64,000 nt of DNA from Myxococcota bacterium (GTDB taxonomy: Bacteria > Myxococcota_A > Polyangia > Polyangiales > Sandaracinaceae). The stretch is from NCBI GenBank assembly GCA_036149055.1, contig JAYZQJ010000227.1, positions 32,001 through 96,000 of the forward strand. The letters are read 5' to 3'. Both the position numbers and the translations under genes were made by a program. Shown here piece after piece: positions 23,852 through 34,644 of the stretch; within the stretch, counting starts at the first letter, position 1; each line of letters begins with the position of its first letter. The notes under the pieces were generated by a model. It had not been told where the DNA came from. It made no database searches and saw only the letters and a program-made list of their open reading frames with translations.

Positions 23852-25567
23852 ATGCGCGCGTCCCATCTGATCTGCGTCCTGCTGCTGGCCGTCGGCTGCA
23901 GCGAATCCGTGACCCTCGAAGACGGGGGCCTGATGGACGGCGCCACGCCGGGCGACACCGGCGTCGTCGACGTCGACTCCAGCACCGAAGAAGACTCCGG
24001 CGTGTCCGACGACTCGGGCATCGAGGAGGACTCCGGCGTGATCGACGTCGACGCGGGGCCGCCGTGCGGCTCGGTCGGGCAGGACTGCTGCGACGGCGGC
24101 GAGTGCGACGAGGGCTTCTGCGACACGACGAGCAACACCTGCGCGGCCTGCGGCGGCGGCGGCGAGCCCTGTTGCCCCGGCGGCATGTGCACGGGCGGCT
24201 TCTGTGACGCCACCACCGACACCTGCACCGCCTGCGGCATGATCGGGGAGGCCTGCTGCCCAGGGAGCACGTGCCTCGACGGCTTCTGCGACGGCGCGAC
24301 CGACACCTGCAGCTCCTGCGGCGCGGCCGGCGAGAGCTGCTGCCCGGGCGACCTGTGCGACGCCGGGAACACCTGCAACCCGGCCGGGCTCTGCGTCGGC
24401 TGCGGCGACCCGGGCGAGGCGTGCTGCACGGACACCACCTGCAACGGCGGCGGCTGCTGCGTGTCGAACACCTGCGTCGGCGCGGGCTCGACCTGCGGCG
24501 GTGGGATCGGCGGCACCTGCACGGGCGGCAGCTGTGGGACCTGCGGCGGCGCCGGGCAGCCCTGCTGCGCGGGCGGCAGCTGCACGGCCTCCACCACGGT
24601 CTGCAACGGCGGCACCTGCGCGACCTGCGGCGGCGCCGGACAGCCCTGCTGCCCCGGCGACTCCTGCGGCGGCGGCCTGGTGTGCGGGGCGAGCGACATC
24701 TGCCAGCCCTGCGGCGGCGCCGGACAGCCCTGCTGCCCCGGCGACAGCTGCACCTCGGGCTGCTGCGATCCCAGCACCGACATCTGCGTGGCCGACGGCT
24801 CGGCCTGCGGCGTGGGCACCTGCACCGGCTCGACCTGCGTGGCCTGCGGCTATCCCGGCGAGGCCTGCTGCCCGGGCGACACCTGCCGCGGCGGCGGCTG
24901 CTGCGACGGCGGCTCCTGCCTCGCGGCCGGTGAGGCCCCGACCGGCACGAGCGGCATGGTCTGCGACCTCGGCGCGGTGGTCGCCTGCGGCGGCATGGGC
25001 GAGCCCTGCTGTGACGGCGCCGACTGCGCCGGCGGGTGCTGCCTCGAGGGGCTCTGCACCGCGGACGGCACGATGTGCGGCGGGCGCACCACCTGCTCGA
25101 TGGGGTCGTGCACGGTCGGCAGCTTCAGCTGCGGCGGCATGGGCGAGTCCTGCTGCGACTTCGGGATCACCGAGATGTGCACCTCCCCGGGCCTCGCCTG
25201 CGTCGGCGGCGGCAGCGGCTCCTGCCAGGCGTGCGGCGGCCCCGGTCAGCCGTGCTGCGATGGCCAGGCGTGCGACGGCGGCGGCTGCTGCGTGGGCAAT
25301 GTCTGCGTCGGTGACGGAGACAGCTGCGGCGGCGGCAGCCTCGGGGCCTGCTCCGCGGGCTCGTGTCAGGGCGGCACCTGCGGTCGACCGGGTCAGCCCT
25401 GCTGCCCGGGCATCGGGTGCAGCGGGCCGTTCGCCATCTGCGCCGGCGGCGCGGTGTGCGAGACCTGCGGCGGTGAAGGCGAGCCGTGCTGCTCGCCTCA
25501 CCAGCACTGCAACGGCTCGCTCGAGTGCACGTTCTCGGGCGGCGCGCAGGTCTGCGCTCGCCCTTGA
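23852..25567 (+). CDS. Cys-rich repeat lipoprotein
   Basis: GGAGGG RBS, lipobox LAVGC, acidic linker, 14 CGxxG(E/Q)xCC repeats. Confidence 0.82.
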   Translation: MRASHLICVLLLAVGCSESVTLEDGGLMDGATPGDTGVVDVDSSTEEDSGVSDDSGIEEDSGVIDVDAGPPCGSVGQDCCDGGECDEGFCDTTSNTCAACGGGGEPCCPGGMCTGGFCDATTDTCTACGMIGEACCPGSTCLDGFCDGATDTCSSCGAAGESCCPGDLCDAGNTCNPAGLCVGCGDPGEACCTDTTCNGGGCCVSNTCVGAGSTCGGGIGGTCTGGSCGTCGGAGQPCCAGGSCTASTTVCNGGTCATCGGAGQPCCPGDSCGGGLVCGASDICQPCGGAGQPCCPGDSCTSGCCDPSTDICVADGSACGVGTCTGSTCVACGYPGEACCPGDTCRGGGCCDGGSCLAAGEAPTGTSGMVCDLGAVVACGGMGEPCCDGADCAGGCCLEGLCTADGTMCGGRTTCSMGSCTVGSFSCGGMGESCCDFGITEMCTSPGLACVGGGSGSCQACGGPGQPCCDGQACDGGGCCVGNVCVGDGDSCGGGSLGACSAGSCQGGTCGRPGQPCCPGIGCSGPFAICAGGAVCETCGGEGEPCCSPHQHCNGSLECTFSGGAQVCARP

Positions 25568-25573
25568 ACCGCG

Positions 25574-26173
25574 TCACTCGACGAGCGTGATGACCCCACA
25601 GGCGACGCGGGCGCCCGCGTTGCCGGTGGGCTGTCCGCCGTCGTCCGGGTCGGCGTGCACGATGACCGCGCGGCCGGTGACCGGCGGCAGGTGGTCACCG
25701 TTCACGCTGAAGGTCTCGAAGGCCAGCTCGACGTGGACCTCGCCGCTGATGTCGGCCTCGACGTTGCCCATGTCCCCGGCGTGTCGCGCCGCGCCGTCCG
25801 GCAGCGCGTGGTCGTGGCCGCCGGGGTTGTAGTGCCCGCCCGCGCTGGTGCCGTCGGGAGCCGAGCAGTCGCCGTTCTCGTGCACGTGGAAGCCGTGGCG
25901 GGACTGCGGCGGGAGCCCGGTCAGGTCGACCTGCACCCGGACGAGCTGCCCCTGCTGCTGGAAGCGAACGGTGCCCTCGACCGCGTTGCCCTCGGTGGGG
26001 CGCATCTCGGCCACCGCGACCGGGGCCGGCTCGATCGGCCCCTCGGGCGCGATCACGTCGACCTGGGTGTCACCTTCTCCGCCGCTCGACGTCGCCTCCG
26101 CGGGCTCGCCCTGAGCGTCTCCCCCGCCGCAGGCGCCGAGCGTGAGAGCGACCATGATCATCAGCTTGCGCAT
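25574..26173 (-). CDS. sodC: Cu/Zn superoxide dismutase (lipoprotein)
   Basis: Lipobox LGAC, HGFHVHENGDCS, SAGGHYNP, HAGDMGN, IVHADPDD, GNAGARVACG. Confidence 0.93.
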   Translation of the reverse strand: MRKLMIMVALTLGACGGGDAQGEPAEATSSGGEGDTQVDVIAPEGPIEPAPVAVAEMRPTEGNAVEGTVRFQQQGQLVRVQVDLTGLPPQSRHGFHVHENGDCSAPDGTSAGGHYNPGGHDHALPDGAARHAGDMGNVEADISGEVHVELAFETFSVNGDHLPPVTGRAVIVHADPDDGGQPTGNAGARVACGVITLVE

Positions 26174-26242: not shown

Positions 26243-27121
26243 ATGACGCGCTGGAGCTGGGTGATCGTGCTGGTGGTCGTGCTCGGGGGCTGCCGCCGGG
26301 AGAGCTCGGTGCGGCCCGACGCCACGGTCCCCGACGCGAGCGCCCTGGACGGGGGCGCGCTCGACGCCGGCCGCGCCGGGGACGCCGGAGCGGACGACGG
26401 GGGGAGCGACGCGGGCCCCGCAGAGGACGGCGGCCTCGGCGACGGAGGCGCGGGCGACGGAGGCGCGGGCGACGGAGGCGCCGGGGACGGCGGCCTCGAC
26501 GGAGGCCCGGTCTCGATGCCCTGCACGCCGACCGGCGCGTGCGATCCCTTCGACGCCTCGAGCTGCCCGTCGGGGCAGAAGTGCGCGGTCACCGACATGG
26601 GCACCGCCTGCGAGGACCTCACCGCCGCGCCGCCGCTCGGCGAAGGAGAGACGTGCACCCGCGACTCCCAGTGCGGCCCCGGCACCTGGTGCGTGAACTT
26701 CGGGGGCGGCTTCGAGTGCGCCGCGATGTGCGCGGCCGGGTCCATCGGCGACTGCGGGGCCGACGGAGCCTGCGTGGGCCGGGTCGGCGCCGAGATGTGC
26801 GTCCAGGTCTGCCGCCCGATCTCGCCGCGCTGCGACATCTACGCTCAGGACTGCGCCGACGCCGCCGACGCCTGCACCCTCGCGAGCCACCCGGAGACCG
26901 GAGAGCGCTACACGGGCTGCCGCCCCGCCGGCGCGCAGGGCCTGGGCGATCCCTGCGGCGGGGGCATGGGCACCTGCGACCGCGGGCTGATCTGCATCCG
27001 AGAGTCCGGGGCCGCGACGTGTCGCGAGGTCTGCCGCGAGCCCGGCCCCCCGAGCTGCAGCGTCGCGGGCGAGACCTGCACCGGCAACGCCCGCAGCTGG
27101 GGCGTCACCTACTGCCGGTGA
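26243..27121 (+). CDS. Cys-rich lipoprotein
   Basis: Lipobox LGGC, DGG/DAG linker, about 26 Cys. Confidence 0.8.
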   Translation: MTRWSWVIVLVVVLGGCRRESSVRPDATVPDASALDGGALDAGRAGDAGADDGGSDAGPAEDGGLGDGGAGDGGAGDGGAGDGGLDGGPVSMPCTPTGACDPFDASSCPSGQKCAVTDMGTACEDLTAAPPLGEGETCTRDSQCGPGTWCVNFGGGFECAAMCAAGSIGDCGADGACVGRVGAEMCVQVCRPISPRCDIYAQDCADAADACTLASHPETGERYTGCRPAGAQGLGDPCGGGMGTCDRGLICIRESGAATCREVCREPGPPSCSVAGETCTGNARSWGVTYCR

Positions 27122-27141: not shown

Positions 27142-28230
27142 CTATTTGGGCTCGGGCTCGGGCGCGCCGAACGGACCCTCGAGGGTGGAGCGGCGGGAGC
27201 GCGGGGGCAGCGCCGCGGGCGGCGGCACGCTGGGCACCGACGTCTTCGGCGGATCCGCGAAGCCCAGCATGCTGAGGAGCAGCGGCTCGATGCCGCGGCG
27301 GCGGAGCTCCGCGCTCGGCGTGGCCTCGCGGCGCACGAGATCGAAGACCGTCGCGTCGTCGAGGCTCATCGCGACCAGCGGCGAGTGGGTGGTCACGACC
27401 CACTGCACCCGCGGATGGAGCTCGGCGAGCGCCGGCAGGAGCTCCCGCTGGAGGCGCGGGTCGAGGTTGGTCTCGGGGTGATCGACGAGGACCACGCCGC
27501 TCGGCTCGAGCGCGCCGTCGCCGCTCCGCAGCCGCGACGCCTCGACCCGCATCATCACCTCGGCCCAGAGCCAGACCGCGGTGGCGTGGCCGAGGGACAG
27601 CCCGTCGAAGCCGACCCGGCGCCCGTCGGGCAGGTCGAGCTGCACCCCGCCGGGATCGAACGCGAGCCGGATCTCGGGCAGGTGCAGCAGCTTGCGCAGC
27701 GCGCTCCGGACCCGGAGGAACCACGCCTCGTGCAGCTTCTCGCGGAAGGTGTCGCCGCTCTCCCGGGCGAGGGTCTGCTCGGTCTTGCGGTTGACGAGGA
27801 GCTGCCCGAGCCGCTCGGCCACGCTCGCCTCCGGCGGCTGCGGATCGGTGTCGAGCGGGGTCGGCCGCGGAGCCGGCAAGAAGCGCGGCGACCGCGGCAG
27901 CGCGAGGTGGGCGAGGACGAGCCGCCCGCTCGCGTGCGCGGAGGCGACGTCGTCGTCCGTCCACGACACGCGCACCGGCCGCCCGAGGTGAGCCAGCTTC
28001 AGCGCCCGGTCGCGGGCCTCGCCGATCGGCGCGTCCACCTTCTCGGCCGGGTGCGCGCGCCCCTCGAGCGCCGCGCGGAGCTCGTCGACGATGCCCGACA
28101 GCAGGCTGCTCTTGCCCGAGCCGCTGGCCCCCAGCAGCACCAGCGACCGGGGCGCGTCCTCGTCCAGCGCGATGATCAGGGGCGACAGGTGGCGCAGCGT
28201 GCGCGCTTCGATGCGTCTCAGCCAGGTCAT
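27142..28230 (-). CDS. ABC/AAA_21-like ATPase
   Basis: Walker A GASGSGKS, signature-like LSLG, Walker B region LVDHPETNLDP, switch TTHSP. Confidence 0.8.
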   Translation of the reverse strand: MTWLRRIEARTLRHLSPLIIALDEDAPRSLVLLGASGSGKSSLLSGIVDELRAALEGRAHPAEKVDAPIGEARDRALKLAHLGRPVRVSWTDDDVASAHASGRLVLAHLALPRSPRFLPAPRPTPLDTDPQPPEASVAERLGQLLVNRKTEQTLARESGDTFREKLHEAWFLRVRSALRKLLHLPEIRLAFDPGGVQLDLPDGRRVGFDGLSLGHATAVWLWAEVMMRVEASRLRSGDGALEPSGVVLVDHPETNLDPRLQRELLPALAELHPRVQWVVTTHSPLVAMSLDDATVFDLVRREATPSAELRRRGIEPLLLSMLGFADPPKTSVPSVPPPAALPPRSRRSTLEGPFGAPEPEPK

Positions 28231-28294: not shown

Positions 28295-29632
28295 ATGAGC
28301 GACGAACGAGGCCCCGACCCGCTCAGCCCGACCGAGCGCGCCGCGCGCATGGACGCGCCGCGACCGAAGCGCGACCTGCCGATCGCGCCCGAGCCGCCGC
28401 CGGGCAAGCGTCACCTCCCCCTGCTCGCGCCGCGGCCGAGCGACGCGCGCTACCGGCCGATCTACGCGGTCTGGGAGATCACCCTCGCCTGCGATCTCGC
28501 CTGCCGTCACTGCGGCTCGCGCGCCGGCCGGGATCGACCCGGGCAGCTCTCCACCGAGGAGTGCCTCGATCTCGTCGACCAGATGGCCGACCTCGGGGTG
28601 CAGGAGGTCAGCCTGATCGGAGGCGAGGCTTACCTGCACGACGGCTGGGTCGACATCATCCGCCGCATCCGCGAGCGCGGCATGATCGCCCTGATGACCA
28701 CCGGCGGGCGCGGGGTGACGAAGGAGCGCGCCCGGGCGGCCGCCGACGCGGGCCTCCAGAGCGTCAGCGTCTCGGTGGACGGCGTCGAAGCGACGCACGA
28801 TCGATTGCGGGGCGTGAAGGGCAGCCACCGCGCGGCCTTCGAGGCGTTCGACAACCTCCGAGAGGTCGGCATCAAGGTCAGCGCCAACACGCAGATCAAC
28901 CGGCTGAGCATGCCCGAGATGCCGCGGGTGCTCGACGACATCATCGCCGCCGGGATCCACTCCTGGCAGATCCAGCTCACCGTGGCGATGGGGCGCGCGG
29001 CCGACGAGCCGGAGATCCTGCTCCAGCCCTACGATCTCCTCGACCTCTTCCCGATGCTGGCCGACCTCAAGGCGCGCTGCGACGCGGCGAAGGTGCGGCT
29101 CTGGCCGGGGAACAACATCGGCTACTTCGGCCCCTACGAGTCGACGCTGCGCGGGACGATGCCGCGCGGGCACATGGCGTCCTGCGGCGCGGGCCGGGTC
29201 ACCCTCGGCGTCGAGGCGGACGGGGCGATCAAGGGCTGCCCCTCGCTGCCCACCGAGGCGTGGACGGGCGGGAACATCCGGGACGCCTCGCTGAAGGACA
29301 TCTGGGAGCGCTCGGCGCCGCTCCGCTACACCCGCGACCGCACGGTCGAGGATCTCTGGGGCTACTGCCGCACCTGCTACTACGCCGACGTCTGCCGCGC
29401 GGGCTGCACGTGGACCAGCTTCGTGCTCTTCGGCAAGGCGGGGAACAACCCCTACTGCCACCACCGCGCGCTCGAGCGGCAGCGCGAGGGCAAGCGCGAG
29501 CGGGTCGTCCGCAAGGCCGAGGCGCCCGGCCTGCCCTTCGACCACGGCGAGTTCGAGATCGTGCTCGAGGACGCACCTCGAACCGACGAGCCACCTGCGC
29601 TAGCATCGTCGCCGGGAGGGACCGGAACGTGA
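28295..29632 (+). CDS. radical SAM/SPASM peptide maturase, PlpX-like splicease (tyramine excision at XYG)
   Basis: WEITLACDLACRHCGSRAG (CxxxCxxC), IGGEA, TTGG, NTQINRLS, WQIQLTVAMGRAAD, PGNNIGYFGPYE, GAIKGCPSL, LWGYCRTCYYADVCRAGCTWT, GNNPYCHHRAL, GLPFDHGEFE. These match my recollection of PlpX-family motifs. Confidence 0.88.
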   Translation: MSDERGPDPLSPTERAARMDAPRPKRDLPIAPEPPPGKRHLPLLAPRPSDARYRPIYAVWEITLACDLACRHCGSRAGRDRPGQLSTEECLDLVDQMADLGVQEVSLIGGEAYLHDGWVDIIRRIRERGMIALMTTGGRGVTKERARAAADAGLQSVSVSVDGVEATHDRLRGVKGSHRAAFEAFDNLREVGIKVSANTQINRLSMPEMPRVLDDIIAAGIHSWQIQLTVAMGRAADEPEILLQPYDLLDLFPMLADLKARCDAAKVRLWPGNNIGYFGPYESTLRGTMPRGHMASCGAGRVTLGVEADGAIKGCPSLPTEAWTGGNIRDASLKDIWERSAPLRYTRDRTVEDLWGYCRTCYYADVCRAGCTWTSFVLFGKAGNNPYCHHRALERQREGKRERVVRKAEAPGLPFDHGEFEIVLEDAPRTDEPPALASSPGGTGT

Positions 29633-29979
29633 GTCACCTGCTTCCTTGCGACGGCTGCGACCGTCACGTGCGGGCCGACGAGCCCACGTGCCCGTTCTGC
29701 GGAGACAGCCTCCGCCACCGCGGCGCGCCGCAGCTCCCCGGGGCTCGCCTGGGACGCGCCGCGACCTTCGCGTTCGGCGCCGCCCTCGCGGCCGCGACCG
29801 CGAGCGGCTGCGGCGAGAGCCACGACCGGACGGACGGCGGTGAGCCGCCCGCCGACGCCGCCGAGCCGCCCGCCGACGCGGGGATCGAGCGAGACTCGGG
29901 CACGGTCGCGCCGCCGTACGGCACGCCGCCCGACGACGGAGGCTTCGCCCCCTTGTACGGTGGGGCGCCCGAAGAGTAG
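29629..29979 (+). CDS. putative spliceotide precursor 1 (116 aa): Zn-ribbon, lipoprotein signal, two PxYG cores
   Basis: GTG overlaps the rSAM stop (GTGA). Sequence: MSHLLPCDGCDRHVRADEPTCPFC...RLGRAATFAFGAALAAATASGC...VAPPYGTPPDDGGFAPLYGGAPEE. It appears only as the tail of the spurious 26539..29979 ORF. Confidence 0.85.
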   Translation: MSHLLPCDGCDRHVRADEPTCPFCGDSLRHRGAPQLPGARLGRAATFAFGAALAAATASGCGESHDRTDGGEPPADAAEPPADAGIERDSGTVAPPYGTPPDDGGFAPLYGGAPEE

Positions 29980-29990
29980 GAGACACGACC

Positions 29991-30521
29991 ATGAGCTTGC
30001 TTCCTTGTCCGGGCTGCGACCGCCACGTGCGCGCGGCCGAGAGCACCTGCCCCTTCTGCGGAGAGGTCCTGCCGATGTCGCTGCGCAGCCGCGCGGCGCC
30101 GGTCCCCACCCGCCGGCTCGGGCGCGCGGCGACCTTCGCCTTCGGCGCCGCCCTCGCGGCGAGCGCCTGCGGCGGAGAAGTCACCCCGGAGGACTCGGGC
30201 GTGCAGCAGGACTCGGGCGCTACGCCGTCGGACGGCGGCGGGGCGGACGGCGGCGGTGACGTCGACTCCGGCGCGACCCCGGACCCGGACTCCGGCGTGG
30301 TGGCCGACGCGGGCTCCGCCCCGGAGGACGCGGGGACCGAGAGCGACTCCGGCGTCGAGACCGACGCGGGCGCGGCGCCGACCGACGCGGGCGGCGTGGT
30401 CCCGGCGTACGGCGGCCCGATGCCGATCGACGGCGGCCTGACCCGGCGCGACGGTGGCCTCTCCCGGCGCGATGGTGGTGGAGTGATGCCCCTCTACGGC
30501 AGCCCGCCCCCCAGCGAATGA
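29991..30521 (+). CDS. putative spliceotide precursor 2 (176 aa): Zn-ribbon, lipoprotein signal, two PxYG cores
   Basis: AGGAG RBS. Sequence: MSLLPCPGCDRHVRAAESTCPFC...RRLGRAATFAFGAALAASAC...VVPAYGGP...VMPLYGSPPPSE. Paralog of precursor 1. Confidence 0.87.
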   Translation: MSLLPCPGCDRHVRAAESTCPFCGEVLPMSLRSRAAPVPTRRLGRAATFAFGAALAASACGGEVTPEDSGVQQDSGATPSDGGGADGGGDVDSGATPDPDSGVVADAGSAPEDAGTESDSGVETDAGAAPTDAGGVVPAYGGPMPIDGGLTRRDGGLSRRDGGGVMPLYGSPPPSE

Positions 30522-31708
30522 GGCGACTGCTCTTCGCGCTGGCGCTCCTCGGCTGCGACGGCGCCACGGTCGCCGACGGCGGGCTCGCGATCGACGGCGG
30601 CCCGGAGGTCGTGGACGCCGGTCGCGCCGACGGCGGCGTCGACGCGGGCGGCGCGACCGGAGACGCGGGCGTCGACGCGGGCGCATCGGACGACGCGGGG
30701 CGCGACGACGCGGGCGCGCCCGACGCCGGGCCGAGCGGGCCGCTCCAGCTCTACGTGGCGCCCGACGGCGACGACACCCGCGACGGCCTCTCGGAGGCGA
30801 CCGCGGTGCTCAGCCTCGGCCGGGTGCACGAGCTCCTCGAGGCGCTCCGGCCCGAGCGGGACGTCGAGGTGCGGATCGCGCCGGGCACCTACCACGGGCA
30901 GACCGTGAGCTGGCGCTATCACCACCCGGAGCGCGAGATCCGCTTCATGCCGCTCGGCGACGAGCGCGACCGCCCGGTCTTCGACGGCTGCCTCGCCGAC
31001 GGCAGCTGCCCCGGCGGGACGTGGCTGCGGCTGCGGGTCTCGAGCGGCGCCCGGACGAACCTGCACTTCCGCTACCTCCGGGTGCAGCGCTACCAGACCG
31101 CGATCAGCCTCGACGGCAACCGCAACGATCCGGCGGCGTCGAACGGGGGCAACACGATCTTCGGCTGCTACTTCGACCGGATCGGCAACGTGTTCGCGCC
31201 GTCCCTCGACCCGTCGACCGCCGCGGTGCGCCTCGTCAACAGCGACGACAACCGCATCGAGAACAACCACTTCGTCGACGTCGTGAACACCCGGAGCGGC
31301 GGCCTGATCCACGCCCTCTACGTCGCCCACCTCAGCGACCGGAACACGATCGCGCGCAACCGCTTCCTCCGGAGCACGGGCGACCCGGTGCGCCTGCGCG
31401 ACTACTCCAACGACAACGTCATCACCGACAACCGCTTCATCCGGGTCGGGACCCACGCCGGCTACACCGACTGGTACTGCGACCACGACGCGCGGACCGA
31501 CTGCACCAAGCCCACGCCCGAGTGTCCGAGCTGGAACAACCAGTTCCGCGACAACCTGCTCGATGGCGACTGGACCTGCGGCGCGCTCGGCACCTTCCAC
31601 TACTTCCAGGACGACACCACCACCGGCTGCAGCCCACCGAGCGCCGGCGCCCGGCGCCTGAGGACGAGCGGCAACGAGTCGACCGCCGCGCCGTGCTCCA
31701 TGGAGTGA
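30518..31708 (+). CDS. lipoprotein with right-handed parallel beta-helix domain
   Basis: Lipobox LLGC, DAG linker, YVAPDGDD..DG motif, Asn-ladder repeats (NRIENNHF, NTIARNRF, NVITDNRF). ATGA overlap with precursor 2. Confidence 0.8.
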   Translation: MRRLLFALALLGCDGATVADGGLAIDGGPEVVDAGRADGGVDAGGATGDAGVDAGASDDAGRDDAGAPDAGPSGPLQLYVAPDGDDTRDGLSEATAVLSLGRVHELLEALRPERDVEVRIAPGTYHGQTVSWRYHHPEREIRFMPLGDERDRPVFDGCLADGSCPGGTWLRLRVSSGARTNLHFRYLRVQRYQTAISLDGNRNDPAASNGGNTIFGCYFDRIGNVFAPSLDPSTAAVRLVNSDDNRIENNHFVDVVNTRSGGLIHALYVAHLSDRNTIARNRFLRSTGDPVRLRDYSNDNVITDNRFIRVGTHAGYTDWYCDHDARTDCTKPTPECPSWNNQFRDNLLDGDWTCGALGTFHYFQDDTTTGCSPPSAGARRLRTSGNESTAAPCSME

Positions 31709-34644
31709 AGGTGCGGTACGGTGAGCGGGTGAGAGCGCTCTCCGGGATCGCCGCGCTGCTGCTCGCCGCCTGCACCGGCGGGAGCACCGTCTACGTGGAC
31801 GTGCGCACGGACTACGTGCCGGGCATCGAGTTCGCGGAGGCGCGGGCCGAGGTCGGCGCGGCCGGCGTGCTGCGGCGGGTGGATCGCGCGGCGGCGCGCG
31901 GCGAGGACTGGGTCGCCGGCCAGCGGGTGGGCCAGGTCGACGGGCTGGGATCGGGGACACACGAGATCCTGGTCGAGCTGCGGGCGAGCGACGGCGCCCT
32001 CGTGGCCACCCAGCGCGTGGTCCGCACCCTCTCGGGCGACGCCGCCGTCACCGTCGTGATCTCACGCGACTGCGGCGACGTGAGCTGCCCCGGGCCCCTC
32101 GACGACGCGGCGGCGACGAGCTGCCGCGGCGGACGCTGCGCGCCGCCCGAGTGCACCCCGGAGACCCCCGAGCGCTGCCCGGAGCCGGCCTGCGACGACG
32201 ACACGGACTGCGACGTCGGCGTCGACTGCGTGGCCGGGGTCTGCGCCGACGGCGTGTGCTTCCGCTCGGCCCAGGACTTCCGCTGCGCCGACGGCGAGTG
32301 GTGCGACCCGGACCAGGGCTGCGCGCCCCTGCCGGGCGGGCCGACCGACGGAGGCGTGCCCCCCGACGCCGGCTGCGCGGCGACGGTGGAGACCTCCTGC
32401 GCCGACGGCGTGGACGACGACTGCGACGGCGACGTCGACTGCGCGGACGACGACTGCGACGGCCGGACCTGCGCCGCCGACTCCGTGTGCGCGGCCGGGG
32501 TCTGCGGCGGGTGCGTGCCGAGCGGCGGGGTCGACGGCTGCGGCGGCGGCGACGAGAACTGCGACGGCGAGATCGACGAGGACTGCGGCTGCGTCCCCGG
32601 CAGCTGGATCGGCGGCACGATCGACACCCCCGGCGACGTGGGCCGCTACGCCGACGTCGCGCTCGACGCGGCCGGCGGCGTGCACGTGAGCTACCGGGAC
32701 AGCAGCGCCGACGACCTGCGCTACGCCTACCACCCCCCGAGCGGCTGGTGGACGATGGAGACGCTCGACTCGGAGGGAACGGTCGGCACCCACACCGACG
32801 TCGCGGCCGAGCCCGATGGATCCCTGCACGTCGTCTTCCACGACGCGACCAACCGCGACCTCCGCTACCGGCACCGCCGGGTCGACGGCGTGTGGGAGGA
32901 GGCGGTCATCGACGCGGTGGGCAGCGTCGGGCGCTACGGCAGCGTCGCCGTCGCCGACGACGGCACCGTGCACGTGGCCTATCAGGACTACGGCGCGAAC
33001 GACCTGAAGTACGCCGTGCGGCCGCCCGGGGGGCTCTGGAGCGCGGAGACCGTCGCCGACGCGGGCACGGTGGGCCGCTACGCCTCCATCGGCGTGGACT
33101 CCGGCGGCGGGGTGCTCATCGCCTACGTCGACGACTCGACGAACGACCTGGTGGTCGCCGAGGGGAGCGCGGGCGCGTTCACCCTCACCACCGTCGACTC
33201 GGAGGGGACCGTCGGCCGCGACGCGGCGCTCGCGATCGACGGCGCGGACGGCGTGCACGTCGCCTACCGCGACGCCACCAACAACCGGCTGAAGTACGCG
33301 CGCCGCGTCGCCGGCGGAGCCTGGAGCGTCGAGGTCGTCGACGAGACCGCGAACGTGGGCGAGTACGCCTCCATCGCGGTCGGGGCCGACGGAGTCGTGC
33401 ACGTCTCCTACTTCGACACCACCAGCGACGACCTCCGGTACGCGCGCCGCGACGGCTCGGGCGCCTGGGGCCTCGAGACGGTCGAGGCCACCGGCGCGGT
33501 CGGGCAGTACACCTCGATCGGGGTCGACGGCGCGCAGGTGCACATCGCCTACCGCGACGCCTCCCGCCAGGACCTCCGGTACGCCCGCCGCGGCGCGGAC
33601 GGCCGCTGGCGCGCCGAGCCGGTCGACACGGTCGGTCGCCGCGGGGAGTGGGCGGCGCTGGCGGTCGACGGCCGGGGGCGCGTGCACGTCACCTACTGGG
33701 ACGAAGACGGGGCGGACCTGCGCTACGCCAGCCGGGGCCGCGGCGGCATCTGGGAAGCCGAGACGGTGGACACGCCGGGCAACCTGGCCGCGGGCACCGC
33801 GATCGCGATCGCGCCCGACGGGGCCGTGCACATCGCCTACCGCGACTCGAGCGCGGCCGACCTCGAGCACGCCACCCGCGCGCGCCCGACCGACCCCTTC
33901 GTGCTGACCACGGTCGACGAGATCGGCGACGTGGGCGACGAGGCCGACCTCGTGGTGGAGGCGGACGGCACGGTGCAGATCGCGCACGTCGACCGGAGCA
34001 ACCAGGACCTGCGGCTCTCGACGCTGCCGCCGGGCGGCGCGTGGAGCTCGAGCACGATCGACGCGCCGGGGAGCGTGGGGTACGGGCCGCGGATCGCGAC
34101 CGATCCGAGCGGCGGGCTGCACGTGATCTACTACGACAACGGCGCCGACGATCTGCGCTACCTCTTCCGGCCGGCCGGCGGCGCCTTCGCCAGCCCGAGC
34201 CCGGTGCTCACGACCGGGAACGTCGGGCGGCGGAGCGGCCTCGCCATCGACGGAACCGGCGGCGTGCACGTGGTGGCCTGGCGGCAGTCCGTGCAGGACC
34301 TCGAGTACGCCTTCCGCCCGTCCGGCGGCCTCTGGTCTCCGGAGACGATCGTGCAGGCGGCCGCGATCCAGGACCACGCGGACATCGCCTCCGACGCGGC
34401 CGGCAACCTCTGGGCGGTCACCTTCGACAACACCCCCGAGGTCGTCGGGATGCGCGTGGTGCCTCGCTCCGATCTCCTGCTCGCGCGCCGCCCGGTCGGC
34501 GGCGCCTGGACGGTCGAGACGCTGGACGCGACCGGCGACGTCGGCCGGTGGGCCGCGGTCGCGAGCACCCCCGACGGCTGGGTGCACGTCGTCTACTTCG
34601 AGAACGGCGCCGACGACCTCCGGCACCTCCGCTACTGCCCCTGA
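31705..34644 (+). CDS. large lipoprotein: Cys/Asp-rich metal-binding motifs plus 14 beta-propeller-type repeats
   Basis: Lipobox LAAC, CADGVDDDCDG / DENCDGEIDEDC, and 14 copies of VGxYxxIAxDxxGxVHVxYxDxxxxDLxYA. Start is GTG 31705 or 31729. Confidence 0.82.
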   Translation: MKVRYGERVRALSGIAALLLAACTGGSTVYVDVRTDYVPGIEFAEARAEVGAAGVLRRVDRAAARGEDWVAGQRVGQVDGLGSGTHEILVELRASDGALVATQRVVRTLSGDAAVTVVISRDCGDVSCPGPLDDAAATSCRGGRCAPPECTPETPERCPEPACDDDTDCDVGVDCVAGVCADGVCFRSAQDFRCADGEWCDPDQGCAPLPGGPTDGGVPPDAGCAATVETSCADGVDDDCDGDVDCADDDCDGRTCAADSVCAAGVCGGCVPSGGVDGCGGGDENCDGEIDEDCGCVPGSWIGGTIDTPGDVGRYADVALDAAGGVHVSYRDSSADDLRYAYHPPSGWWTMETLDSEGTVGTHTDVAAEPDGSLHVVFHDATNRDLRYRHRRVDGVWEEAVIDAVGSVGRYGSVAVADDGTVHVAYQDYGANDLKYAVRPPGGLWSAETVADAGTVGRYASIGVDSGGGVLIAYVDDSTNDLVVAEGSAGAFTLTTVDSEGTVGRDAALAIDGADGVHVAYRDATNNRLKYARRVAGGAWSVEVVDETANVGEYASIAVGADGVVHVSYFDTTSDDLRYARRDGSGAWGLETVEATGAVGQYTSIGVDGAQVHIAYRDASRQDLRYARRGADGRWRAEPVDTVGRRGEWAALAVDGRGRVHVTYWDEDGADLRYASRGRGGIWEAETVDTPGNLAAGTAIAIAPDGAVHIAYRDSSAADLEHATRARPTDPFVLTTVDEIGDVGDEADLVVEADGTVQIAHVDRSNQDLRLSTLPPGGAWSSSTIDAPGSVGYGPRIATDPSGGLHVIYYDNGADDLRYLFRPAGGAFASPSPVLTTGNVGRRSGLAIDGTGGVHVVAWRQSVQDLEYAFRPSGGLWSPETIVQAAAIQDHADIASDAAGNLWAVTFDNTPEVVGMRVVPRSDLLLARRPVGGAWTVETLDATGDVGRWAAVASTPDGWVHVVYFENGADDLRHLRYCP

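Follow-up and report, generated by a model that had tools for sequence, protein, structure and literature searches.

A two-component ('binary') spliceotide system, with a precursor class distinct from the Nif11/NHLP and DUF1843 classes, is proposed here at a probability of about 0.6 for a locus of a Myxococcota bacterium of the family Sandaracinaceae (GenBank assembly GCA_036149055.1, contig JAYZQJ010000227.1, positions 32,001 to 96,000). The window, that is, the whole stretch of DNA analysed, comprises 64,000 nucleotides with a guanine plus cytosine content of about 74%. On its plus strand, the gene of a radical S-adenosylmethionine (SAM)/SPASM enzyme, a candidate splicease (28295..29632, 445 amino acids), is followed by the genes of two putative precursors, A1 (29629..29979, 116 amino acids) and its paralogue A2 (29991..30521, 176 amino acids), both bearing Tyr-Gly sites. 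The most likely leader of these proteins is a zinc ribbon combined with a lipoprotein signal peptide. The observations behind the proposal are the enzyme's place among known families, a pairing of enzyme and precursor that is conserved, conserved motifs, and a supportive model of the complex. Neither spliceases, nor the XYG rule, nor binary systems are new: the enzymes act at XYG, and binary systems without a Y protein exist (PMC11414181).

The three genes precede a beta-helix lipoprotein gene, the fourth in a row on the plus strand. The TGA stop codon of the enzyme gene (29630-29632) shares bases with the GTG start of A1 (29629-29631), forming a GTGA overlap. This coupling, with A2 following, had been reported in a preliminary description of the DNA and was confirmed from the sequence at 29540-30560. 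A1 ends with TAG at 29977-29979, and a Shine-Dalgarno-like word resembling a ribosome-binding site, AGGAGA (29978..29983, plus strand), lies 8 nucleotides before the ATG of A2 at 29991. A1 and A2 are 77% identical across their first 62 residues. The start of the enzyme at 28295 is supported by a database protein to which the 445-residue product is 100% identical over 100% of its length. A1 also exists as an exact, nameless protein in public collections, where the precursors are recorded only as 'hypothetical protein'; in the protein atlas, their clusters are unnamed and commonest in Myxococcota.

Enzyme family and recurring partners

The enzyme matches the Pfam families Radical_SAM (84.7 bits) and SPASM (31.4 bits, residues 297-362). 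Its CxxxCxxC cluster motif (C66/C70/C73; 28490..28513, plus strand) is invariant in a 47-row alignment. The translated SPASM region (29183..29458, plus strand) holds seven Cys, arranged as C297-x12-G-x4-C315, C358-x2-C361-x5-C367-x3-C371, and C388; in the same alignment C358, C361, C367, and C388 are invariant, and C297, C315, and C371 are at least 90% conserved. Among NCBIfam families, the top match is TIGR04103 (nif11-class peptide radical SAM maturase 3), which we take to be InterPro IPR026482 and whose profile is matched from position 2 to 379 of 412. Second comes TIGR03913 (GDL motif peptide-associated maturase), and the third-ranked family, at 156 bits, is far behind both. By these matches, the enzyme clearly belongs to the TIGR04103/TIGR03913 superfamily. 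The splicease PlpX has been assigned to IPR026482 (PMC11002830). An exhaustive search of representatives returned 663 clusters at E<=1e-30, and 74 full-length representatives were chosen from the best 150 of these. All 74 match TIGR04103 at E<=1e-60, and 70 of them match TIGR03913 too. Only one exceeds the TIGR03913 cut-off (P0125, 771 bits) and none exceeds that of TIGR04103, the best being P0130 with 550.6 bits. Because 0 of 401 genomes sampled from the phylum reach the TIGR03913 cut-off, the name 'GDL motif peptide-associated maturase', carried by the close homologue P0038, was rejected; P0038 itself scores 492.9, below 591.75.

Cyanobacterial proteins named nif11-class maturase 3 by NCBI came from a second search for homologues, and the enzyme is 52-58% identical to cyanobacterial relatives over about 375-424 residues (tblastn). 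Two quick trees of 67 and 62 rows, supported by the Shimodaira-Hasegawa-like approximate likelihood ratio test (SH-aLRT) only, place it among splicease-family enzymes. In the 67-row tree, a clade of 41 rows (support 96) unites the window clade (9 rows, support 98) with the nif11-maturase-3 clade and the TIGR03913 clade. The 62-row tree covers enzymes with inspected neighbourhoods; here a 47-row clade (SH-aLRT 100) comprises 34 enzymes partnered with zinc-ribbon proteins, two of them from this genome, together with 10 cyanobacterial enzymes and 3 without a partner found. Its cyanobacterial side takes in the genome's own paralogue and an enzyme from Candidatus Sericytochromatia. Thus, the proposed check of whether the enzyme falls within the splicease clade came out in favour, with grouping beside Nif11-associated cyanobacterial splicease-family enzymes in both trees. 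The motifs previously given as shared with PlpX (WQIQLTV.MGRAAD, PGNNIGY.GPYE, GNNPYCHHRAL, and GLPFD.GEF) likewise fall on invariant or at least 90% conserved columns of the 47-row alignment, which includes cyanobacterial nif11-class peptide radical SAM maturase 3 proteins but not PlpX itself.

The pairing of enzyme and precursor recurs within the genome and across the phylum. A second radical SAM enzyme of this genome (contig C208), 55% identical to the first, has three genes of the same build upstream, the last overlapping the enzyme start. Among the 401 phylum genomes, the enzyme was found at E<=1e-80 in 109, among them 96 of the 340 of high quality; by genus, it was present in 79 of 254. 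A neighbour of the same build, with C-x2-C...C-x2-C followed by a hydrophobic stretch, lies within 1.5 kb on either side in 29 of 31 loci, giving 43 proteins; these loci include the genome's own two and several close kin, and hence are not independent. The two loci without such a neighbour are L036 and L048, of which at least L048 has a short flank. Precursor copy number ranges from 1 to 4 per locus. In 20 extended loci, nothing but the enzyme and the precursors is conserved together; no dedicated protease, exporter, acyltransferase, Y partner or other RRE (recognition element) partner, or sigma factor gene is conserved there. A scan of neighbours similarly returned no PqqD-like family of the kind expected for a PlpY-like partner.

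In 79 named public contigs searched with a strict pattern, a YG-bearing neighbour was present in 34 of 47 with myxobacterial-type labels, some of which read only 'Deltaproteobacteria' or 'Proteobacteria', versus 1 of 32 others (cyanobacteria, Acidobacteriota, and a few more), the sole positive being a Sericytochromatia metagenome-assembled genome (MAG). A looser look adds YG precursors in L112 (myxobacterial-labelled) and L149 (labelled Alphaproteobacteria), and several misses lie at contig ends.

Other partners stand beside sister enzymes in cyanobacteria and Acidobacteriota. In 5 of 5 cyanobacterial loci inspected as positive controls, an upstream small protein carries QP[LM]YG[VAI] cores, and both of the two such proteins scanned contain a Nif11 domain (PF07862). 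In Acidobacteriota (L117, L119, L120, L121, L128, and L142), sister radical SAM enzymes stand beside one to three small proteins that begin with xYG, followed by G-D/N about ten residues on. All three acidobacterial partners scanned match DUF1843 (PF08898, E 3e-9 to 3e-16), and they are probably the 'GDL motif peptide' class. The xYG site is hence the sole feature common to the Nif11, DUF1843, and zinc-ribbon partners of these sister enzyme clades. The Sericytochromatia MAG holds a zinc-ribbon/lipobox precursor with two QPVYGAP sites (L124:3756-4166, minus strand), outside Myxococcota, and the cyanobacterial Nif11-type clade has the enzyme of this MAG as its sister (SH-aLRT 99). This case hints that Nif11 leaders replaced the zinc-ribbon type of precursor, or at transfer, or at mis-binning. 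A separate arrangement occurs in L060, L061, and L062 (family f7), in which two enzyme paralogues, sharing about 70% and 62% identity with that of the window, stand on either side of one to three precursor genes in the order enzyme-A-(A-A)-enzyme, which suggests a division of labour between two spliceases.

Precursor anatomy and the modelled complex

The precursors share a three-part build: an N-terminal zinc ribbon, a basic stretch with a short hydrophobic run ending in Cys, and an acidic tail rich in Pro and Gly. Their alignment (35 rows) has a mean column identity of 20%. Invariant columns are C7, C10, H13, C21, F23, C24, and C61, and L4, P22, R43, Y97, G98, and P100 are conserved in at least 90% of rows. 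The ribbon, C7-x2-C10-x2-H13 ... C21-P-F-C24 in A1 (29647..29700, plus strand) and at 30006-30059 (plus strand) in A2, begins a few residues past the start codon, which is ATG in 40 of 43 precursors. Searches of A1 and A2 against NCBIfam and Pfam yielded no significant match and no DUF1843, only sub-threshold zinc-finger matches, and a PDB sequence search with A1 gave nothing meaningful (best E 0.26). The earlier statement that the substrates lack a Nif11/NHLP leader therefore stands as far as the absence of such a match in A1 and A2 goes. Its stronger form, that they have no leader, is probably wrong, as the zinc ribbon is modelled on the enzyme.

The signal-peptide-like stretch of A1 runs from R43 to A-S-G-C61 (29755..29811, plus strand; Cys codon TGC at 29809-29811), and that of A2 ends in A-S-A-C at Cys60 (30123-30170, plus strand; TGC at 30168-30170). 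A lipobox core in which an uncharged run leads to small residues in positions -1 and -2 and then to Cys, presumably that of PROSITE PS51257, is matched by 39 of 43 precursors including A1 and A2, with Ala or Gly at -1 in all 39. The uncharged run before the Cys spans 11-18 residues (median 16), which is the length of a signal peptide and would make a short membrane helix; net charge in the flanking n-region is +1 to +4. The genome carries two tandem copies of lspA, encoding signal peptidase II (C206:28652-29721), both over the TIGR00077 cut-off. Of the preliminary description's claim that the substrates are lipoproteins, the lipobox-type signal was borne out in A1, A2, and their homologues beside related enzymes; it is a pattern match, though, and the Cys sits late, at residue 45-83.

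Beyond the signal, the tail has mean contents of 0.22 for Asp plus Glu, 0.16 for Pro, and 0.15 for Gly, and contains one to five xYG sites with the consensus [P/A/V/I]-x-P-[L/V/A/P/M/R/E/K]-Y-G-[A/G/L/M]-P-P. In A1 the sites are APPYGTPP (29908..29931, plus strand; Y97, TAC at 29917) and APLYGGAP (29947..29970, plus strand; Y110, TAC at 29956); in A2 they are VPAYGGPM (30399-30422, plus strand; TAC at 30408) and MPLYGSPP (30486-30509, plus strand; TAC at 30495). As had been described, these four are the only Tyr of the two proteins, two in each, and all stand in P-x-Y-G. Conservation of this motif in homologous neighbours, previously posed as a test, was found as well. In the 43 precursors of the 31 loci, 89 of 98 Tyr after the signal precede Gly, versus 15.7 expected from Gly content, so the enrichment is far beyond chance; parsing the proteins a little differently gave 88 of 97. 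Pro stands at -2 in 51 and at +3 in 69 of the 89 sites. The core resembles P-I-R-P-[L/G]-Y-G-L-P-I, the PlpA splice tag with which proteins are engineered (PMC10533398, Table 1).

Scanning the entire genome for the pattern gave 30 matches, of which 8 are members of the family, all with YG. YG is absent from the remaining 22, which are Cys-repeat sequences or lie off-frame. Two of the eight lie in the window, three on C208, and three are orphans on C4 (-17670), C128 (L011:1486-1950, minus strand), and C199 (-16633), which may be modified in trans. The C4 and C128 orphans end with C-P-P-Y-G-x-P-P and a short hydrophobic tail, and the end of the L112 precursor is similar (PMPYGAPPARRRLV).

The enzyme and A1, each given as an alignment, were folded together with SAM and three 4Fe-4S (iron-sulphur) clusters. 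The complex scored 0.90 versus 0.00 for the best control, a measure of model confidence obtained with alignments and ligands that differ from the calibration set-up, in which 116 of 157 solved complexes attain the 0.90 mark, as do 2 of 215 mismatched pairs. Model runs share at least 87% of contacts, and the predicted local distance difference test (pLDDT) score of the partner is at least 59. In the model, the interface on A1 consists of residues 2-13 and 22 (zinc ribbon), 34-51 (linker and start of the signal helix), and 91-101. On the enzyme, it consists of barrel residues by the cluster and GGE motifs, together with 268-303 and 362-390. R12 and H13 of A1 would pack against enzyme residues 278-284, 293, 362-366, and 390, including the conserved G-N-N-I-G-Y-x-G-P-Y-E. 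Moreover, A1 residues 91-101 (GTVAPPYGTPP) are placed within the barrel, against residues flanking the cluster motif, the GGE motif, and W224/Q225.

The model thus supports binding between the enzyme and A1 rather than demonstrating it. It is unlikely to reproduce a solved complex, because a PDB sequence search revealed no solved splicease structure, the best match being SkfB (9e-22). The zinc ribbon is the likely recognition element, because it is invariant and is modelled as docking on the enzyme. In AlphaFold models of PlpX, PcpX, and RhaX, as reported in PMC11414181, XYG lies in the active centre and a helix of the leader or of the Y protein lies on the enzyme, a picture that the predicted A1 complex matches.

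Proposed pathway and its alternatives

From these observations we infer the chemistry, the order of modification and export, lipidation, cleavage, and function. In the cytoplasm, the enzyme would bind the N-terminal zinc ribbon of A1 or A2, possibly with the adjoining signal-peptide helix too, and a P-x-Y-G-x-P-P site would be threaded into its barrel. A tyramine equivalent (C8H9NO, -135.06 Da) would be excised from the Tyr, as by PlpX-type spliceases, leaving the residue before it as an alpha-keto-beta-amino amide. The modified protein would be exported via its internal signal peptide, lipidated on the invariant lipobox Cys, and then cleaved by signal peptidase II. Since this cleavage would take away the zinc-ribbon 'leader' as well, neither a protease nor an exporter of its own would be needed; the lack of either among the conserved neighbours fits a system borrowing the general lipoprotein pathway. 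What is expected to result is a disordered tether, acidic and rich in Gly and Pro, which would be held by a lipid anchor and present between one and five keto-amide groups in the envelope. It may most plausibly serve as a tethered inhibitor of Ser/Cys proteases, which is the best functional guess because spliced peptides inhibit such proteases and unspliced forms do not (PMC11626197; PMC9811515). The residue ahead of Tyr differs between sites, which would match several protease specificities.

Several observations weigh against this proposal. The enzyme falls under the TIGR04103 cut-off (529.3 bits vs 725) and under that of TIGR03913 (477 bits vs 591.75), and so is formally a member of neither equivalog. 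The trees took in NCBI-named members and unnamed cyanobacterial relatives, with no experimentally characterised splicease, and the complex score carries the limits given above. An enzyme dependent on iron-sulphur clusters and SAM must act before export, and the order of these two steps is itself part of the inference. Lipoproteins are expected to have their Cys within about the first 35 residues, and here it lies at residue 61 in A1, 60 in A2, and 45-83 in homologues, which is accounted for by the zinc-ribbon extension preceding the signal. Four of the 43 precursors miss the lipobox core, and one has no Cys. Furthermore, 9 of the 98 Tyr do not precede Gly, and the precursors of L101, L103, and L140, which lie downstream of the enzyme, have Y-S, Y-A, and Y-R at the equivalent C-terminal site (PIYSAA, AIYAAA, and PVYRAT) despite a full zinc ribbon and lipobox; these may be decayed sites or reflect a relaxed motif. 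Pro precedes Tyr in A1 site 1, which spliceases may or may not accept. Not every YG is processed in the known systems, as the DYG of RcsA stays unspliced (PMC11626197). Three of the eight family members of the genome are far from any radical SAM enzyme. Finally, contigs from RNA libraries (four runs, two studies) span the locus and bridge the enzyme/A1 and A1/A2 junctions, but this evidence is weak: DNA carry-over is possible, one run covers every bin of the region, and depth cannot rank the genes.

Some of these points would suit an unlikely variant of the pathway, in which splicing occurs as proposed and the precursors are not lipoproteins. They would instead be uncleaved bitopic membrane proteins, with the zinc ribbon inside and the tail outside, or soluble peptides freed by another protease. 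The position of the signal behind a folded N-terminal extension of 30-45 residues and of the Cys at 45-83 speaks for this, as do the proteins that miss the lipobox core or the Cys; besides, the model brings the hydrophobic stretch (A1 residues 46-51) into contact with the enzyme, and its purpose may hence be binding and not export. Against it, every one of the 35 aligned precursors keeps the Cys, with Ala or Gly always at -1, an uncharged run of 11-18 residues is short for a stable membrane helix, and the nearby genes include no conserved dedicated protease or exporter. Less probable still is that the enzyme acts on Tyr-Gly by other radical chemistry, such as crosslinking or side-chain modification, instead of tyramine excision. 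SPASM peptide maturases do vary in reaction, as seen in the maturases of sactipeptides, pyrroloquinoline quinone (PQQ), and mycofactocin, both family cut-offs are missed, and splicing activity here is predicted only. Yet the enzyme shares 52-58% identity and a clade with cyanobacterial enzymes whose inspected Nif11 partners have P-x-Y-G-x-P, and only Y, G, and flanking Pro are conserved at the sites, which is the splicease signature (PMC11414181).

It is highly improbable that the zinc-ribbon proteins are not substrates but regulators or accessory factors, anti-sigma-like or chaperone-like, standing beside the enzyme. Anti-sigma factors often have an N-terminal zinc-binding head, one hydrophobic segment, and an extracytoplasmic tail, the same layout as that of the precursors. 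However, no sigma factor gene is conserved nearby, the tail is of low complexity with xYGxP as its sole conserved feature, copy number varies from 1 to 4 per locus, and a YG site is modelled in the active-site barrel.

The two-component splicing system may also be set in a wider frame, which is put forward tentatively and appears somewhat doubtful. It would combine a class of lipoproteins that are peptides made by the ribosome and modified after translation (RiPPs), with zinc ribbon, Sec signal, and a multi-warhead surface, with a swap of leaders to Nif11. The class would occur in about a quarter of the sampled phylum genomes, and its leader, a zinc ribbon fused to a Sec/signal-peptidase-II signal peptide, would be read in the cytoplasm. 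The housekeeping lipoprotein machinery would act as exporter, leader peptidase, and lipidating enzyme at once, yielding surface keto-amide tethers with P1-like Leu, Val, Ala, Pro, Met, Arg, Glu, and Lys. Nif11 leaders may then be a later swap onto an ancestral lipoprotein-type system, as the cyanobacterial Nif11 enzymes are nested among zinc-ribbon-partnered ones, with Sericytochromatia as sister.

Relation to known systems and neighbouring genes

The type I systems of Pleurocapsa (PlpX/PlpY/PlpA and PcpX/PcpY/PcpA; PMC11414181, PMC11002830) resemble the present one in the radical SAM/SPASM superfamily of the enzyme, in several adjoining precursor genes, and in P-x-Y-G-x-P cores; the cyanobacterial relatives, named nif11-class maturase 3 or retrieved by tblastn, share a strongly supported clade with the window enzyme. 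Unlike them, the locus has no Nif11/NHLP leader and no conserved Y/RRE partner, and a zinc ribbon with a lipobox signal stands instead. Type II binary systems of Rheinheimera (RhaX/RhaA, also RasX/RasA, and RcsX/RcsA; PMC11414181, PMC11626197) share the two-component layout without Y and a leader element modelled directly on the enzyme, a comparison made by description and not by Rheinheimera sequence. Their products inhibit Ser/Cys proteases only when spliced (PMC11626197). Whereas type II systems have helical leaders and small secreted products, a zinc ribbon forms the N-terminus here and the product would keep its lipid anchor.

Systems of the TIGR03913/DUF1843 kind form a sister clade in the trees and have xYG partners as well. 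Those partners are small, helical, and cytoplasmic-looking with no signal, whereas the partners here carry a signal and the enzyme scores below the family cut-off. The precursors also share with classical lipoproteins (Lgt, LspA, Lnt) a positive n-region, a hydrophobic run of short length, small residues in positions -1 and -2, and the invariant Cys, and lspA is present in the genome. They differ from them in the conserved 30-45-residue zinc ribbon before the signal and in a mature part that is a low-complexity tether and not a folded domain. Lipidated RiPPs (PMC8784127, PMC13647313) likewise are ribosomal peptides that end up with a lipid; in those described in these sources, the acyltransferase is encoded in the cluster, whereas here the housekeeping lipoprotein pathway would serve and no acyltransferase is conserved in the locus.

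According to citing papers (PMC10533398, PMC10849128), the survey of Scott et al. 2022 arrived at 939 predicted systems and 27 characterised pairs, with YG-rich partners spread over 189 genera, and its method would very likely have met these myxobacterial loci. If this type is already in its catalogue, the present analysis is worth less, offering a member that is well documented and a proposed mechanism that is more precise. A literature search returned no paper joining spliceotides with lipoproteins, nor tyramine and radical SAM with zinc ribbons. No title since 2022 on tyramine splicing concerns a myxobacterial or lipoprotein type, and no entry listed on spliceotides and myxobacteria is evidently on zinc-ribbon lipoprotein precursors, as far as the listing tells.

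Spliceases are, to our knowledge, the sole known ribosomal route to alpha-keto-beta-amino acids. A precursor with its own export and anchor signal predicts the location of the product, the removal of its leader, and the housekeeping enzymes involved, and it offers handles for finding the product, namely globomycin sensitivity, envelope fractionation, and ketone-reactive probes. If true, the proposal would add the zinc ribbon as a new kind of RiPP recognition element and provide a natural precedent for splicing proteins destined for the envelope. It would also point to a possible device for self-protection or prey interaction in predatory, protease-secreting bacteria.

The genes around the three-gene unit are of mixed kinds. 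Immediately downstream, at 30518-31708 (plus strand), lies a lipoprotein gene with a weak right-handed beta-helix/NosD match, whose ATG overlaps the stop of A2 (ATGA). It was rejected as a member of the operon and appears to have been inserted recently, because no counterpart exists in the same-genus locus L056 or in any other of the 20 extended loci. On the other side, a divergent AAA ATPase gene (27142-28200, minus strand; AAA_21, with a PtuA-like C-terminal part, E 2.7e-17) was likewise set aside, being kept beside the enzyme only in the same genus (80%) and family (40%). Further upstream are two lipobox-bearing, Cys-rich secreted proteins on the plus strand, one of 571 residues with C-G-x-x-G-x-x-C-C-type repeats and no Pfam match (23852-25567) and one with only a weak Dickkopf_N match (26243-27121). 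Between them, a Cu/Zn superoxide dismutase (25574-26173, minus strand; Sod_Cu, E 3.5e-42) carries the lipoprotein signal LTLGAC. Beyond the beta-helix gene, a lipoprotein of about 979 residues (31705-34644, plus strand) is built of repeats of about 45 residues ending in D-L-R/K-Y-A, has a weak BNR_4 match, and is 76% identical to its counterpart in the same-genus locus.

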